DNA of 64,000 nucleotides from Candidatus Woesearchaeota archaeon (GCA_016211185.1 JACQST010000043.1:1489-65488); one strand, 5' to 3'. Counted from the first letter of the stretch, positions 4,379 to 50,019 are shown. Translations and numbers: made by a program. The notes: generated by a model not told the origin, from the letters alone.

Positions 4379-4798
4379 TTAACCTATCCTGTAGTCAAGG
4401 AAGGGCATCATCTTTATCAGCGATTCCCCTGCGAAGTCCCAGAAGTATGGCGCGGCAAATATTATTGCCCCAATCATGAGGGTGTGGTGGAACTTCTCGC
4501 CTACCCTTCCAACTATGGCGGCTGCCGCACTTACTTTTAGCATTGCGATTATCGCTATGAATGCCCTGACGCCGAACTCAACATAGCCTGTCACAGCCAT
4601 CTGCTGCCCTATGAGTCCCAGTCCCCATGCAACATTCATGCTTACGAAGGTGAAGAACATGGTTGCCGGTATTGCGTGAAGGCCATGCCCAAGCCATCCC
4701 ATTCCTCTTTCATCCTGGTGGACAAAGAAAAGCTCGATTATGCCTATTGCCGCGCCCATGAAAAGCGCAGGGACTACGATTAGCTGCGTCTCAGCCAT
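4379..4798 (-). CDS. Hypothetical integral membrane protein (139 aa, about 4 TM helices)
   Basis: Hydrophobic segments throughout the track ORF. Confidence 0.5.
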   Translation of the reverse strand: MAETQLIVVPALFMGAAIGIIELFFVHQDERGMGWLGHGLHAIPATMFFTFVSMNVAWGLGLIGQQMAVTGYVEFGVRAFIAIIAMLKVSAAAAIVGRVGEKFHHTLMIGAIIFAAPYFWDFAGESLIKMMPFLDYRIG

Positions 4799-4888
4799 GC
4801 GCTGATTCTGAACCAGCTATTATTTAAACCTTTGCCAAGCTCTTCTTGAGCGTTTTTAGAAAAGTTTTTATAAAGGCCTTGTGAAGGG

Positions 4889-41100: not shown

Positions 41101-41169
41101 TTAGGCAGAAAGCTTTCTCAAAATAGAACTATGGAAGCGAGAAGGGGTTTTCCCTCCTTCTTATATGGA

Positions 41170-41253
41170 AGCCTCCGAGGGGAGTTGCACCCCCGACCTG
41201 CAGATTTCCTAATGGATACAAGTCTGCCGCAATAGCTACTATGCTACGGAGGC
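41170..41253 (-). tRNA. Putative tRNA-Thr(UGU) with an 11-nt intron at the canonical 37/38 position
   Basis: Minus strand GCCTCCG-TA-GCA..TGC-G-GCAGA-CTTGTA[TCCATTAGGAA]A-TCTGC-AGGTC-GGGGG-TGCAACT-CCCCT-CGGAGGC-T. The acceptor stem pairs perfectly; the anticodon is TGT. Confidence 0.5.
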
Positions 41254-41379
41254 GTTTCGTGGGATTTCGTGGAGCTTGCGAAGCAATGCTCCACTTAAAT
41301 AGTTTTGGTCCAGCTTTACTAAAAGATGGAGCTGGTATGCTACGGAGGCGTTTCGTGGGATTTCGTGGAGCTTGCGAAG
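41230..41379. repeat. Direct repeat of about 50 bp (2 mismatches) duplicating the 5' 24 nt of tRNA-Thr plus 30 nt of its leader
   Basis: AGCTacTATGCTACGGAGGCGTTTCGTGGGATTTCGTGGAGCTTGCGAAG at 41230..41283 and again, with gg in place of ac, at 41326..41379. Inside it TTTCGTGG is tandemly repeated, and a TTATATATAA TATA-like box lies just beyond the second copy. Confidence 0.55.
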
Positions 41380-41397
41380 AAATTCTGTTATATATAA

Positions 41398-43257
41398 TTA
41401 TTGTTGGGTGCTGCGCTTTACCAGCTCTGCTATTTTCTGGCCCGGGGCTTTTCCCCTGAGTTTCTCCATGGCCTTGCCTATTAGTGCGTTTGTAGGCATG
41501 CCCTTGTTCTGGCTGATTATCTCTTTTATTGCATTGTTCAGTTCATGCTCTGTGAGCTTTGCGTATTTCTTTGTGGCTTCCACTAATGGTTTCCCTTTTG
41601 CTTTTTCGAGGAGGATTTCGAACACTGCTTCCCGTGATATTGTGTCGTTGTTGAGGCTGTTGAGGACTTGTTCGTAGTCGTGGCTTGTGATGTCTGGCGT
41701 GATGCTGTATCTTCTTCTTATCTCTTTTTCTGTTGTTAGGAGTGTTGTGGCTATGAAGTATGGGTCGACTCTTGTATATTTCGCTGTGTATTGCTCGAAC
41801 TGTGCGAAGCTTGTTCTTGATATTTGTTGGGCTATGTCCTTGCTTAGCCCCATTTTTTCGTATTTGGCCTGCTTCTCAGTCATGAGTTCTGGTGCTTCTA
41901 TTCCTTCTGTTTCAGGGATTATCGGAGTTGTGTCTGTTTCCGGATACATGCGGGCAGAGCCGGGCATTGGTCTCAGGTATGTGGTTGTTCCATCTGGGTT
42001 TGCTTTTCTTACTTCGCTGGGCACGCCTTGGATGGCTTGGTGTGCCCGCCGGGTGATTGCCTTGATAGCTTTTTCGGCTTGTTCTTTGTTTGCAATTACT
42101 ATTATGAACGCGTCTTTTTGGGAGCACGAGAGCTTCCTTTTTATTTCGTCCACTTGTGGCTGTGTTATTCCGTGGGCTGGGAGCTCATCTGAGTGTATTG
42201 CTCCTCCTGCGCCTGTTGTGCGGGCATGCTCTGAGAATTCCTTGCCTAGTCTGCGGCCGGGCTGTATTTCTGTGCCTATTATTTCGGCGAATCCCTCTAG
42301 TTTTGTCGCCACGGCTTCTGAGCCTTTCTCGATTTGGCTTTTTACAAAGCCTGGCTCTGAGTTTTTTATTATTCCTGTTATGTCTGTTGCTTTGCCTGTT
42401 GCCTCTGCGCCTCTTTTTTTCAGTTCGGCTGATATTGAGAGCAGTTTTTTTTGTCTTTGAGCTTCTGTTTGAGCAAGTTTTGGCAGGAGCTTGAGTTCCT
42501 GTGCCCCTTTTATCTCGACTCGTGTTCCTCCTGCTATTGATACGTTTATGTCCTGCCTTATTGTTCCTATTCCTCGCTTGGCTTTTCCTGTGCTTCTCAG
42601 GACCATTCCTATGTGCTCAGCTACTTCCCTGGCCTGTTCCGGGCTCGTTATGTCTGGCCCTGTGGCTACCTCTATGAGTGGTATCCCGAGCCTGGATAGG
42701 CTGTATATTACTGAGTCCTGTGCTGTTTCTATTATCTTTGCGGATTCTTCTTCTATGCAGATTGTTGGTATTGTTATGTGCGTTTTTTTAGTGGTTATTT
42801 CTCCGTTTCTTGCTATCAGTGCGGTTCTCTGGAAGCCTGAGGTGTTGCTTCCGTCGACTACTGTTTTTCTCATGACGTAGGCCTTATCGACTGGTGTGGC
42901 TTTCAGGGCTTTTGCTGCCTGGAGTGCTGCCTGCAGCGATTCATGGCTTAGGTTGTGTATTGGTTCCTCGTCAAGCTCTACTGCGCATGTCGAGTTTCTG
43001 TAGGCATGGTATATGAATAGCCTGTCTCTCTGCATTTCATGCATTGCTGCGATGTCTATCTCGCCTTCTTCGCCTGCGGCAGCCCTCAGCCTTCTCGTGA
43101 CTATGAGGTCAGGCTGGGCATCTTCTGCTGTCTCCGGGTTGCAGCTGCAGAAGAGCTTCCCTATGTTTAGCTGCTGGTGGATTTCAAGGCCTATCCTGAT
43201 GCCTAGGCTCTCATTTTCTTGTGTATGCTGCATGCTCCATCCTTCTGTATCAGTCAA
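41398..43257 (-). CDS. gatE: Glu-tRNA(Gln) amidotransferase subunit E
   Basis: N-terminal GLEIHQQLN..KLFCSC and the archaeal GatE architecture (619 aa). Confidence 0.9.
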   Translation of the reverse strand: MTDTEGWSMQHTQENESLGIRIGLEIHQQLNIGKLFCSCNPETAEDAQPDLIVTRRLRAAAGEEGEIDIAAMHEMQRDRLFIYHAYRNSTCAVELDEEPIHNLSHESLQAALQAAKALKATPVDKAYVMRKTVVDGSNTSGFQRTALIARNGEITTKKTHITIPTICIEEESAKIIETAQDSVIYSLSRLGIPLIEVATGPDITSPEQAREVAEHIGMVLRSTGKAKRGIGTIRQDINVSIAGGTRVEIKGAQELKLLPKLAQTEAQRQKKLLSISAELKKRGAEATGKATDITGIIKNSEPGFVKSQIEKGSEAVATKLEGFAEIIGTEIQPGRRLGKEFSEHARTTGAGGAIHSDELPAHGITQPQVDEIKRKLSCSQKDAFIIVIANKEQAEKAIKAITRRAHQAIQGVPSEVRKANPDGTTTYLRPMPGSARMYPETDTTPIIPETEGIEAPELMTEKQAKYEKMGLSKDIAQQISRTSFAQFEQYTAKYTRVDPYFIATTLLTTEKEIRRRYSITPDITSHDYEQVLNSLNNDTISREAVFEILLEKAKGKPLVEATKKYAKLTEHELNNAIKEIISQNKGMPTNALIGKAMEKLRGKAPGQKIAELVKRSTQQ

Positions 43258-46368: not shown

Positions 46369-49300
46369 TCAGCCCATGTAGGATGGCTTTTCGTCCTTTA
46401 TCTGTCTTGCCCTTGCCTGCCTTACCTGGTCTCTTATGCTTTCATATACCTCTTCTGTTTCTTTTGACACTGATGGCTTTATTTTCTTGAGGGATTCCTC
46501 GAAGTTTTTTGCAGTTACGGACTTCGCGTTCATGTCTTTCCTTAGTGCAAGTATCGCGGCTTCCCTGCAGACTGCCTCTATGTCTGCTCCTACGTATCCC
46601 TGGGTTTCTTCTGACAGCTGGTTTATGTTGACTTCCTTGAGGGGCATGTTCTTTGCGTGCACCCTGAAGATTTCTGTGCGGGCTTCCTGGTCAGGGACTG
46701 GTGTCAGTATTATCCTGTCGAATCTTCCCGGCCTGAGTAGTGCGGGGTCTATCATGTCTGGCCTGTTTGTGGCAGCTATCACGACGACGTCATACAGGTC
46801 CTCGAGTCCGTCTATTTCTGTTAGGAGCTGGTTTACTACTCTTTCTGTTGAGTGGCTGTCTGATGACATTCCGCGCCTTGGCGCTAGGCTGTCTACTTCG
46901 TCAAAGAAAACTATTGTGGGGGATGTCTGCCTGGCTTTCTTGAATATCTCCCTTACTGCCTTTTCGCTTTCGCCAAGCCATTTTGAGAGCAGTTCCGGGC
47001 CTTTTACCTGTATGAAGTTGGCTTCGCTTTCTGTTGCTACGGCCTTTGCAAGCAGGGTTTTTCCTGTTCCGGGCTCTCCGTAGAGGAGTATTCCCTTTGG
47101 CGGCTTGACTCCGAGCCTCTTGAATGCGTCGCCGTGCTTTATTGGCCACTCCACAGCTTCTATTAGTTCCTGCTTTACGTCTTCGAGGCCTCCTATGTCT
47201 GTCCATTTTATGGTTGGGACTTCGACAAGGACTTCCCTCATTGCTGAAGGCCTTACGACTTTGAGGGCTTCCTTGAAGTCCTTTCTTGTTATCATGAGCT
47301 TTTCAAGCAGTTCTTTTGGTATCGGCTCGTCTTCCTGGAGCTTGAGTTCTGGAAGTACTCTTCTTAGGACTATCATGGCCGCTTCCTTGCAGAGGGCTGC
47401 AAGGTCTGCTCCCACAAATCCGTGCGTTATGGCTGCTATTTCTTTCAGGTTGACGTTTTTTGACAGCGGCATGTTTCTTGTGTGTATCTTGAGTATGTCG
47501 ACTCTTCCCTCTTTTGAGGGAACGCCTATCTCTATTTCCCGGTCAAACCTTCCCGGTCTTCTGAGCGCAGGGTCGAGCAGGTTCGGTACGTTTGACGCTG
47601 CTATGACTATTACCTTTCCCCTGCTCTTTAGGCCGTCCATTAGCGCAAGCAGCTGGGCCACAACCCTTCTTTCGACTTCTCCGTGGACTTCTTCCCTTTT
47701 TGAGGCTATTGCGTCTGTCTCATCTATGAATATTATGCTCGGTGCGTTCTTTTCTGCTTCTTCGAATTTCTTGCGGAGGTTTTGCTCTGACTGGCCATAA
47801 TATTTGCTATTATGAAGTAGTAACAATCCCGATGTCATAAAGCTGTCATCTTCAACTGTAAAATCATATAGCTCCTGTTCGCCTGCATAGCTTATTGATT
47901 CTATCCACTCCCATGCAATATCCTTCCTTGTCAGCAGCTCATATTCCCTTTTTATGGCAGGGGTCAAGGCGTTGTTTCTGGAAGCTATTTTGTACAGCTT
48001 GCCGAGAGCATGCTCAGTGAATTTAGCCTTCCTGCAAACATAAATGTCATTATTCCTGCATTCTGAATAAGGAAGCCTTTTCCTTACAGACTCTATCAGC
48101 AACCGGGGTTCAGGTATATGCTCAGAATGCCTGTTTGTGGATCTGAGTTTTGAAAGCCTCGCCCTTTTCTTCAGGCTGGCCGGAACAATAAGTTTTCTGA
48201 ACTCTTCCCGTCCCTTATTTCCCTTTGTCGCCAGTTCGTACATCATTCCGAGACGGGTTTTATGCTTGTTGAGCTTTGTTGGGATGGAAAGCTTTAGCTG
48301 CATCAGAGTCTGCATTTCCTGAAGAAACCCATATGAGGAACTGTTGAGTTTCGGAGTAGGGTAATTCCCATTCATTGATACCGTTCCATCACCATCAAAA
48401 TATCCCTTGACAAATGCCGCCACTTCCTCTTTTGGCAATGAATAAAAGAGCGGGGGTATTGCGGGATTTCTTTTTCCATGAAGCATGCCGGATTCCTTGA
48501 TTAAGGCCGCAAGGGTCTTTGAGTAGACTATTACTCTTCCGTCAGGATACTCTCTTGGGTTGGTGATTGCAAACAGGCTGCGCAACAAATCCTTATATCG
48601 TTCCCTGAGCATCTCATCGTTGTTGGTAAAGGTGATTCCATCCTCAGAAACATATCCTTCAGACATGACCAGTCCAAGGTATTCAAGAAAATCAGGGGAT
48701 GTTTGTTCCGGTATCGTTATCCAGTTACTGCGGGATAGGTTCCTTCCCTTTGGCGCCTTTTTCCCGTTTTTCTTTTCAAGTCCTTCGAGAGAAAGTTTCT
48801 GGCTGGATTCCTCAAGATCTATCTTGTTTACTCTTGCAACGAACTGGCCTTCAGCTAAGTCTTCAAGTTTTTTCCAGACAAGGCCGCCGTTCTCATATAC
48901 CAAGAAAGGCTGGTTCTTTGAGCACATCATCCGAGTTCCGTTGCTAAAAGAAAGCCTGTATGCTGGAGCGATAAGTTTTGCCATATGTGTGATTTTTGAT
49001 TTCGATATTCGGCCCTTGGAATAGGCAAATGTCTTTATCGGCTGTGCAAGCTCAATGACTTTTATTTTATCATCCCTGATTTTTTTCCCCCTTGCATTGT
49101 CAAACATGTCCCTGGCCTTTATGTGTCCTTTGGGATTAGTGAATATTCTTGTATCCCCATCAACGCACATTATCTCCGGGCCATTGATGAGGATGAAGTG
49201 CGCGTTTGTCTCGTTTGCAACTGCCTTTGCGAGGAGCGTCTTTCCAGTTCCGGGTGGCCCATGCAGCAGGACTCCTTTAGGCGCCTCGATTCCGAGCCTC

Positions 49301-50019
49301 TCGAAGATCTCCGGGTGCTTCAGGGGAAGCTCGACCATCTCCCTGATTTTCTTTATCTCTTCCCTGAGGCCGCCTATGTCCTCGTAGGTTACTTCAAGGG
49401 CTGCCTCCTCTGACACCTCGACTGCCTCTGGGTTGAAGACTACCTCTGTTAAGTCGCTCACAATCACAGCCTGCTTCGGCATTGTGTCTACAACGAGGAA
49501 CTTTATGTCCCCAAACCCGAACCCGTAGACGTCCTCGTCAAGCATCCTGAATATGTCTTCGAACGGGCTGTGCGCGAGGGTCGCTCTTCTCCTTGTGCCC
49601 CCACCCAGCGCGACTATGTCTCCCTTCATTAGAACCCTCCCGAGAAGTCCCTGCTTGAACAGGTCTGATGATGCCCTGATTATGATGCCTTTTCTTGCAG
49701 GCGCTATGACAACTTTCTTGGCTTCCTTCACGTCTGCCTTCTGTATCGCTACTGTCTCGCCTATGCTTGTCTTTGTGTTCCTCCTTATTATGCCGTCCAT
49801 CCTTATTATGTTGAGGCCGATGTCTCCAGGGTATGCGCGGTCAGCTATCGCGACTGTTTTCCTTCCGCCTTCTATCTCTATTATGTCCCCTGGCCTGACG
49901 CCTATGTGCTGCATGAAGCTTGTGTCTATCCTCACTATTCCCTTGTTTACGTCGTCCTGCACCGCCTCTGCAACCTTGAGTTTCAGTTCTCGATCAGGCA
50001 TGGGTTCGAGTATTGGCAT
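46369..50019 (-). CDS. cdc48: Cdc48/VCP-like AAA+ ATPase (two AAA domains) interrupted by an intein
   Basis: N-domain [20 protein letters not shown] and two Walker A motifs ([30 protein letters not shown]). The D1 sequence GPEIM | CVDGD...LLLLHN | [30 protein letters not shown] shows a 453-aa insert. Confidence 0.9.
47809..49167 (-). mobile_element. Intein (453 aa) with a LAGLIDADG homing-endonuclease domain, inserted in the Cdc48 D1 domain
   Basis: It begins with Cys (CVDGDTRIF) and ends with HN followed by the extein Ser. LAGLIDADG-like blocks [17 protein letters not shown] and [12 protein letters not shown]. Removing it restores the conserved [30 protein letters not shown] sequence. Confidence 0.8.

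Follow-up and report, generated by a model that had tools for sequence, protein, structure and literature searches.

A 64-kb stretch of DNA from a Candidatus Woesearchaeota archaeon (GCA_016211185.1, JACQST010000043.1:1489-65488; 64,000 nucleotides (nt), hereafter the window, with positions counted from its first letter) carries on its minus strand an intron-bearing tRNA-Thr(UGU) gene that is preceded by a front module of two parts, designated here F and E. F is a partial copy of the tRNA 5' end, which appears to be a stranded remnant of the first 14-22 nt of the gene, while E is a spacer of 80-95 nt with two hairpins, HP1 and HP2. The same layout recurs in related uncultured archaea, which excludes both an assembly error and a one-off scar; the module is a recurrent feature of several Woesearchaeota, and its spacer is under constraint. 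The explanation we favour, with a probability of about one half, is that an old insertion in the D-loop region of the tRNA gene brought a replacement 5' end, and that a 57-nt direct repeat seen in the window arose by later gene conversion or unequal recombination.

On the minus strand, the order of features is the gatE stop codon, TATA box 1, a 37-nt leader, F, HP1, box 2, HP2, the leader tail, and the tRNA:

41398..43257, minus strand: gatE (Glu-tRNA(Gln) amidotransferase subunit E), upstream neighbour and synteny anchor with relatives
41388..41397, minus strand: TATA box 1, TTATATATAA, immediately past the gatE stop codon (41398..41400) and 38 nt ahead of F
41330..41386, minus strand: repeat copy A, a copy of the tail of E (41350..41386) followed by F (41330..41349)
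41330..41349, minus strand: F, partial 5' tRNA copy, GCCTCCGTAGCATA-CC-AGCT, exact over 41336..41349
41310..41335, minus strand: hairpin HP1, CCAGCT / AGCTGG with a 14-nt loop containing TTTT, starting right past the exact part of F
41294..41309, minus strand: box 2, ACCAAAAC + TATTTAAG, resembling a transcription factor B recognition element (BRE) and TATA box, 40 nt ahead of the intact tRNA
41269..41294, minus strand: hairpin HP2, GTGGAGC A TTGC TTC GCAA GCTCCAC, 11 bp with one bulged A
41234..41290, minus strand: repeat copy B, tRNA nt 1-20 preceded by the final 37 nt of spacer E, which form the leader
41254..41268, minus strand: leader tail, GAAATCCCACGAAAC
41170..41253, minus strand: tRNA-Thr(UGU), 84 nt with intron and 73 nt spliced (Rfam RF00005; ARAGORN intron mode)
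41206..41216, minus strand: intron TCCATTAGGAA, 11 nt at position 37/38 (own bulge-helix-bulge scan and fold)

A metagenome scan for two copies of GCCTCCGTAGCATA lying 67-97 nt apart yielded four further contigs with a window-like layout, L013, L015, and L016 with a tRNA-Thr(GGU), and L014 with a tRNA-Thr(UGU). All four share the order of TATA box, F (15-22 nt), a hairpin right after F, more hairpins, and an intact, intron-bearing tRNA-Thr gene. The repeat in these contigs covers tRNA bases only (15-22 nt) and no leader, and the spacer between the repeats is 67-93 nt, as against 39 unique nt in the window. A further example came from the locus of the closest GatE relative, L031. The window GatE matches at 100% the NCBI GatE of 'Candidatus Woesearchaeota archaeon', the next relatives being 61% identical, and its open reading frame (ORF) begins 8 codons ahead of the start of the database protein. 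L031 carries E with HP1, ACTAAAAT-TATTTAAG, and HP2, the right part of E, TATA box 2 and HP2 among it, being 75% identical to that of the window, and its F stands at the usual distance, ~25 nt, behind its own TATA box. This F has decayed (GCTTCCGTATCTTA, matching at 11/14 positions), and its three substitutions explain why the locus was not caught by the scan. Between L015 and L016, F, HP1, and the adjoining GGATCCAAAC are 85-100% identical, compared with ~43% in the flanks. F is not the same as the 5' part of the intact gene in L015, L016, and L031; in L015 and L016 the D-loop sequence is AGUAGCCA in the downstream copy and would be AGGUAGCUAGC or AGAUAGCUAAC if derived from F.

Six locus types are known in all, four of which were found by a pattern that requires an intact 14-mer in F. 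The sixth, L014/L036, has F, and a spacer that is unrelated to E. When loci of the relatives of a protein neighbouring L014 were collected, those at 100% identity (L036, L037, and L038) repeated the L014 layout, while those at 80-83% (L039, L042/L043, L044, and L045) carried a single tRNA at the position of F, with a promoter and leader (L039, L042-L045) homologous to those of L036. Likewise, in L001 and L035 the tRNA-Thr(UGU) gene begins 37-44 nt after gatE, behind AACTATTTAAA, and F is absent. In L047 (GatE P0113) no tRNA-Thr was found near gatE, a tRNA-Arg being present there, and the L048 sequence stops 29 nt after the gene. Since F occupies the start position of the tRNA of its F-less relatives, the module is either an insertion into a normal gene or an easily lost part of one; the break in the tRNA falls at positions ~20-22 in the window family and at ~15-19 in the L036 type.

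Spacers homologous to E were found in the window, L031, L013, L015, and L016. Against 3000 shuffles, the similarity gave z = 9.0 for window-L015, 5.4 for window-L016, 6.0 for L013-L016, and 10.4 for L015-L016, and among the window, L013, L015, and L016 the homology spans the whole length of the spacer; the L014-type spacer showed no significant relation to these in the same test. HP1, the 5' arm of which overlaps the final six nt of F, has homologous hairpins in L031, L015, L016, and L013. In a four-sequence alignment of HP1 and HP2, 92% of positions were paired and 6 pairs had changed on both sides, a covariation score reached by 0/500 shuffles, with slid controls pairing at 34-58%. HP2 across five genomes was paired in 97% of cells, with 4/7 pairs changed on both sides (G-C/A-U, G-C/U-A, G-C/C-G, and G-C/A-U/U-A) and again 0/500 shuffles of equal score; slid controls over both hairpin tests paired at 31-58%. 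The E family thus combines sequence homology with pair changes on both sides, as is expected of a conserved structured RNA or DNA element. Folding of F+E as RNA formed both hairpins (z = -3.55 in the window, -2.14 in L031). The MAFFT alignment misplaces HP1 and HP2 for the window and L031; when HP1 is correctly registered, the two hairpins are near-entirely Watson-Crick, the only G-U pairs being two in a hand-drawn outer stem of the L031 HP1, and for this reason the constraint may act at either the RNA or the DNA level.

No Rfam family was found over the spacer in the window, L013, L014, or L016, and no C/D or H/ACA boxes were seen in it by eye. A profile of E, searched with nhmmer against the 382 kb examined, matched only tRNA-Thr loci and no dispersed copies. 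A dispersed repeat or miniature inverted-repeat transposable element was rejected on these grounds, there being no further E copies in those 382 kb and only two occurrences of the leader core in the window.

The direct repeat in the window (41234..41290 and 41330..41386) is 57 nt long and 93% identical (53/57), with a spacing of 96 nt. Its exact block covers 43 nt, made up of 29 nt of leader core and tRNA bases 1-14, where 0 matches are expected by chance. The tRNA share is 20 nt (14 exact, then CC vs GT, then AGCT) and the leader share 37 nt, with 2 mismatches at the edge, all four mismatches of the repeat lying at its two edges. In the preliminary description this was presented as a tandem duplication of 24 nt of tRNA and 30 nt of leader with two mismatches; the duplication of the 5' part and leader as a direct repeat is real, while its lengths and mismatch count required revision. 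Nor is it tandem, as the copies are not head-to-tail: the repeat amounts to 1.6 units of a 96-nt period, 39 nt unrelated to the tRNA body lie between the copies, and Tandem Repeats Finder (TRF) reported no array in the region. A simple head-to-tail tandem duplication was rejected because only 57/96 nt are repeated, the 39-nt spacer is unlike the tRNA body, and TRF was negative. In L031, what stands ahead of F is unrelated to the tail of E, and the leader is likewise unrepeated in the other members of the family. The absence of leader repetition from L031 implies that the long repeat arose within the lineage of the window. On the 3' side, the repeat has a small counterpart at 41130..41172, where a 9-nt direct repeat, GCTTCCATA, consisting of the last 3 tRNA nt and the trailer (41164..41172 and 41130..41138), flanks a 25-nt hairpin, TAAGAAGGAGGGAAAACCCCTTCTC.

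The two 5' ends are each accompanied by a TATA-like box at a comparable offset, ~38 nt to F and ~40 nt to the tRNA, according to a table of A/T runs. The second of these, CTATTTAAG (41294..41302), has CCAAAAC directly before it, is conserved in L031 (ACTAAAATTATTTAAG), corresponds to GGATCCAAAC(ACATTCAAG) in L015, and is similar to the promoters of L001 and L035, the orthologues that lack F. The claim that no strong TATA box exists other than the one ahead of the partial copy consequently fails, the intact gene having one about 40 nt upstream. The leader tail, together with the CCAC that precedes it, forms a short internal tandem (CCACGAAAT / CCCACGAAAC), which appears as a 5-nt gap in the alignment with L031.

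The tRNA gene itself was identified with confidence. It matched RF00005 at 51.3 bits (gathering score 29, E 5.6e-10) over model positions 1-71/71, the full cloverleaf, and was the sole Rfam match within the 64-kb window. The anticodon TGT lies at 41218..41220, the discriminator is T (41170), CCA is not encoded, and the T-loop and D-loop read TGCAACT and AGTAGCTA. After splicing, the 73-mer is identical at 70/73 positions to the intronless gene of L045, which ARAGORN calls Thr(tgt), and the gene is 85% identical to the L031 tRNA, also Thr(tgt) by ARAGORN; the UGU anticodon, the orthologous body, and the lack of a long variable arm together identify it as tRNA-Thr(UGU). These results bear out the earlier proposal of a minus-strand tRNA at 41170..41253 with anticodon TGT and an 11-nt insert at 37/38. 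The gene is found by both RF00005 and ARAGORN in intron mode, the latter at identical coordinates and under the label Ser(tga), because ARAGORN misplaces the intron. Default ARAGORN and a whole-window Rfam run at gathering scores both missed it, and Rfam recovered it only under an E-value threshold and with filters more permissive than those of the gathering run. Annotators should be aware that intron-bearing tRNAs of this clade are easily overlooked, and that the partial copies are open to miscalling.

The intron occupies the canonical 37/38 position, with the cmscan alignment showing a 13-nt insertion. Its motif is a relaxed helix-bulge-helix-loop, made up of the 5-bp anticodon stem, a central helix CTTG:TAGG, and a 3' bulge AA|A, with the 5' cut TA|T falling within a 7-nt terminal loop (h3 = 0). 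A strict bulge-helix-bulge, with two 3-nt bulges, a 4-bp central helix, and flanking helices, was not present at the intron. The tRNA-Thr genes of the window, L002, L013, L015, L035, and L045 share an unusual T-loop, UGCAACU, with G in place of the near-universal U55, and a D-loop, AGUAGCUA, without the G18-G19 pair. Elsewhere, the T-loop is a normal UUCAAAU (L001) or CGCACAU (L031 and L044). Given these loops, the usual D-loop/T-loop contacts must differ in the clade.

There is a single working gene here, the tRNA-Thr(UGU) with its 11-nt intron. Under the favoured explanation, DNA that carried its own copy of the tRNA 5' end would have been inserted in the D-loop region, and in the lineage of the window and L031 the insert would also have supplied its own BRE/TATA box. 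The gene would thereby have been kept intact, with the former 5' end stranded as F behind the ancestral TATA box. The intact copy is predicted to be transcribed from TATA box 2 within E (predicted leader ~19 nt), by read-through from TATA box 1, or by both; RNase P would presumably trim the leader, the splicing endonuclease would remove the intron at the relaxed motif, and F would be excluded from the mature tRNA. In a later step, F may have been renewed from the true 5' end, by gene conversion or unequal recombination, with the terminal 37 nt of E being copied ahead of it. That the mismatches are confined to the edges of the repeat and that the leader copy is specific to the window point to a recent conversion tract or unequal crossover rather than an integrase crossover. 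Folding comparisons are also relevant here, because the conformer that uses F instead of the true 5' strand is about level in L013 (+0.5 kcal/mol) and favoured by 2-10 kcal/mol in the remaining four loci, and so a co-transcribed F should interfere with folding. Such interference fits the decay of F in L031, as well as the presence, in the window and L031, of a TATA box inside E and a T4 run in the HP1 loop.

Several points weigh against this explanation. An F transcribed together with the tRNA would compete with the true 5' strand for the 3' strand of the acceptor, and neutral persistence does not account for such a cost. The high identity of F+HP1+GGATCCAAAC between L015 and L016 relative to their flanks looks like selection, which is unexpected of a relic, and the covarying hairpins mean that E is constrained, which could reflect an RNA function involving F. 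The sample is biased towards a well-kept F, four of the six locus types having been found with the intact 14-mer pattern. Gain and loss of the module are indistinguishable, since an exchange between F and the true 5' end would remove E cleanly, and what is left would be a gene lacking F. The gene, the repeat, the family, the place of F and its decay in L031, the covarying hairpins, and TATA box 2 are observed directly, whereas the insertion and its enzyme, use of the promoters, trimming by RNase P, and the conversion event are inferred.

The chief competing account of the module's origin, though not of the 57-nt repeat, is that F and the tRNA 5' end are the attachment (att) sites attL and attR of an element that integrates in the 5' part of tRNA-Thr genes, with E as a remnant of the element or as a non-autonomous att cassette moved in trans by an integrase encoded elsewhere. 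This is possible, though on balance unlikely. The repeated block takes in the tRNA 5' end (in the other loci it starts at -2..+1) and stops within the D-loop (+15..+22), and F occupies the position of the tRNA in relatives, L001 and L035 serving as empty sites for the window and L039 and L042-L045 for the L036 type, as would be seen at an att scar. E supplies a promoter, which a 5'-integrating element must do, and partial tRNA genes derived from elements are common in archaea (PMC9897764, PMC3218864). The integrase scar suggested in the preliminary description therefore agrees with the repeat geometry and the empty sites, but not with the lack of an integrase or with the mere 39 unique nt between the repeats. 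Among the 27 ORFs at 27.8-58.5 kb of the window, Pfam identified no recombinase (integrase or transposase), none within ~14 kb of the repeat encoded an integrase, and the L037 integrase had no tblastn match anywhere in the window, nor do the repeats enclose kb-scale foreign DNA. Spacers of 39-93 nt contrast with the kb-scale elements of known cases (9-23 kb, PMC9897764), and a short E of similar length in five genomes, with covarying hairpins, would not be expected from independent deletions. The window repeat also reaches 37 nt into a leader that is itself part of the conserved spacer. A matching att site was sought in viral contigs with the tRNA 5' 15-mer and the HP1/GGATCCAAAC motif, and these scans returned only chance matches in coding DNA and no attP.

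An integrase was found in a relative, where a Phage_integrase ORF lies directly after the tRNA-Thr gene in L037 (2454..3615), while the same-species assembly L036 has small unrelated ORFs instead. From the T-loop onward L036 and L037 diverge, which, with this integrase, points to the 3' end of the gene as an integration hot spot. The L031 gene bears a comparable att-like scar (4734..4830), in which a 15-nt copy of the tRNA 3' end, CCACCGGAGGCTTTT, stands 69 nt downstream with two hairpins between. Both observations lend the att account some support, but the integrase example acts at the 3' end and not the 5' end, where F and E are located.

It is also conceivable, but rather unlikely, that F+E has a function, within the precursor or as a small RNA of its own, in controlling how tRNA-Thr folds, how its 5' end matures, or how abundant it is; an acceptor-strand mimic with two hairpins could, for instance, trap the 3' acceptor strand kinetically or serve it as a decoy. 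The hairpin covariation, the folding z scores, and the preservation of F+HP1+GGATCCAAAC in L015 and L016 are consistent with this, as is the fact that in L013, L015, L036, and L031 a canonical TATA box places the predicted start of transcription at F. F is energetically able to replace the true 5' strand and, even in L031, retains 7/7 pairing with the acceptor 3' strand via a C-to-U change. Against such a role, F has nevertheless decayed in L031, most relatives are without the module (L001, L002, L035, L039, and L042-L045), and the L036-type spacer is unrelated. There was no Rfam match and no partner or sensor was evident, and near-all Watson-Crick pairing in HP1 and HP2 would fit DNA palindromes equally well.

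That the upstream unit is the remnant of a second, head-to-tail tRNA-Thr gene, with HP1 as its former anticodon arm, seems improbable. In the window, TCCATCTTTTAGTAAAGCTG resembles the intron and stem TCCATTAGGAAATCTG, collinearly but weakly, as does AACAAAGGCTAGG in L015 with AACAAAAAGGCTGAGG; the L013 upstream unit is tRNA-like as far as the start of the anticodon loop, and in L013, L015, and L016 the loop of HP1 is compatible with a U33...A37 pattern. These similarities were, however, no better than those of shuffles (p = 0.08-0.84), the upstream unit gave no match to the tRNA model even at E <= 10, the T-arm and 3' acceptor strand are absent, and the compensatory changes speak against free decay.

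More improbable again is a disrupted gene in which F serves as the genuine 5' exon and the splicing endonuclease excises E together with the downstream nt 1-14/22, as a large D-loop intron or in a manner akin to a split tRNA. Promoters do stand at the canonical distance from F, and non-canonical D-loop introns and split tRNAs are known in other archaea (PMC3218864, PMC4090602), but a strict scan of five loci detected no bulge-helix-bulge joining F to the equivalent point downstream. The best candidates, in L015 and L016, were weak, clashed with HP1, and would give an aberrant 11-nt D-loop. A perfect 4-3-4-3-4 bulge-helix-bulge, the only strict one in that precursor, is formed in L014 (1..186) and L036 (2156..2260) by the spacer sequence GCTATGCTCGTACGG and nt 5-19 of the downstream tRNA. 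It cuts inside the tRNA and leaves a 59-nt insert, so that nt 1-14 would be removed, and the ligated product has neither a tRNA nor a further motif. In addition, the downstream copy is complete and conserved, its 5' part being identical to that of F-less orthologues, and F has decayed in L031. The 64-kb window contains no orphan 3' piece (T-arm/acceptor) and no complement of the sequence following F, and the intact gene lies 96 nt downstream, contrary to a split tRNA. The same results speak against the unusual processing scheme that had been raised as an alternative, there being no complementary leader in the window and, in the five loci scanned, no bulge-helix-bulge that links F to the intact gene.

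That the 96-nt period is a product of the assembler is scarcely credible, since even though the window comes from a single metagenome assembly and its GatE has one database copy, the repeat copies differ at 4 positions, the unique 39-nt spacer is homologous to spacers in four other independently assembled genomes, which answers the possibility of an artefact named in the preliminary description, and the L036-type layout recurs unchanged in four assemblies that come from different samples.

Other features of interest were noted at related loci and elsewhere in the window. The tRNA-Thr(UGU) gene of L039 (2150..2270) has, besides the intron at 37/38, a second intron within the T-loop (TTGAAGCAACAAACATTGTTTCATGCAAG), where close relatives have 0-1 introns. 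A free-standing LAGLIDADG_3 ORF is found in L040 (2322..2966) between a 204-aa gene and the tRNA-Thr promoter, and ~350 nt of non-coding sequence with several GC-rich hairpins separates a 108-aa ORF from the F promoter in L031 (4190..4540). In the window, a CDC48-type AAA ATPase ORF of 1216 aa (46369..50019, minus strand) contains an intein in its first ATPase domain, with Intein_splicing at residues 335-737 and LAGLIDADG_3 at 531-611.

The layout has partial parallels among known systems. Split and tri-split tRNA genes were reportedly described by Randau in 2005 and Fujishima in 2009, in Nanoarchaeum and Caldivirga. These resemble the present locus in having a free-standing 5' fragment with its own promoter in a DPANN or archaeal genome, and in the splicing endonuclease as the expected enzyme. 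They differ in that known split genes are without an intact copy, and the tail of the fragment is complementary to the leader of its partner, forming a bulge-helix-bulge, whereas in the window there is an intact gene 96 nt downstream and no such pairing. Non-canonical D-loop introns in archaeal tRNAs, which Marck and Grosjean in 2003 and Sugahara in 2008 are said to have reported, likewise interrupt the gene at D-loop positions ~14-22, and the host tRNA here already has a canonical intron (two introns in L039). Such introns, however, leave the exon unduplicated and are bounded by a bulge-helix-bulge, while here nt 1-14/22 are duplicated and no bounding motif is present. The cis-mobilizable elements (CIMEs) of streptococcal integrative and conjugative elements (ICEs) are non-autonomous att cassettes, in which att-like direct repeats enclose a segment that lacks a recombinase and can be moved in trans by a related integrase. 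The likeness extends to a short segment of this kind, but CIMEs are bacterial and kb-sized, and the putative cassette here is archaeal and ~100 bp. To our knowledge, an att cassette of ~100 bp has not been described in archaea.

Archaeal att elements share with the window locus a direct repeat of one tRNA end, a partial copy that retains the old flank, and an empty site in relatives, but are unlike it in that here the spacer is a non-coding hairpin region of 39-93 nt, the repeats are of the 5' end, the spacer is conserved across genomes, and the window ORFs at 27.8-58.5 kb include no integrase. Partial tRNA copies flank integrated archaeal elements as attL and attR, according to the passages on such elements in She et al. 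2001 (as cited in PMC3218864) and van der Gulik et al. 2023 (PMC9897764), and in the documented cases 9-23 kb of element DNA with an integrase lies between ~44-bp repeats, mostly of the tRNA 3' end (PMC9897764). Split, tri-split, and permuted tRNA genes of Crenarchaeota have been treated by Chan, Cozen and Lowe 2011 (PMC3218864), and the non-canonical archaeal tRNA introns have been reviewed (PMC4090602).

The intron-bearing archaeal tRNA and the local recombination behind the 57-nt repeat are ordinary parts of this locus, whereas no description of a conserved F-E front module of Woesearchaeota tRNA-Thr genes turned up in the literature searched. Very tentatively, F+E may be an undescribed cis-acting pre-tRNA module of the Woesearchaeota, in which an imitation of the acceptor 5' strand precedes the two conserved hairpins, and which either gates the folding and 5' maturation of tRNA-Thr or represents a new kind of disrupted gene in which two 5' ends compete. 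In a variant of this idea, E would be a non-autonomous element of ~100 bp that brings a substitute 5' end to the D-loop region of the tRNA-Thr genes into which it homes.

The introns, splits, and integration scars of DPANN tRNA genes bear on how tRNA genes evolve and how they are used by mobile elements. To these the window locus adds a recurrent layout that fits none of them cleanly, a stranded 5' end and a covarying spacer ahead of an intact tRNA-Thr gene. Should the module be no more than a recombination product, it illustrates the creation, homogenisation, and loss of short direct repeats at the 5' ends of tRNA genes; were F or E to act at the RNA level, this would be a new type of control over a tRNA precursor, in organisms with very small genomes.

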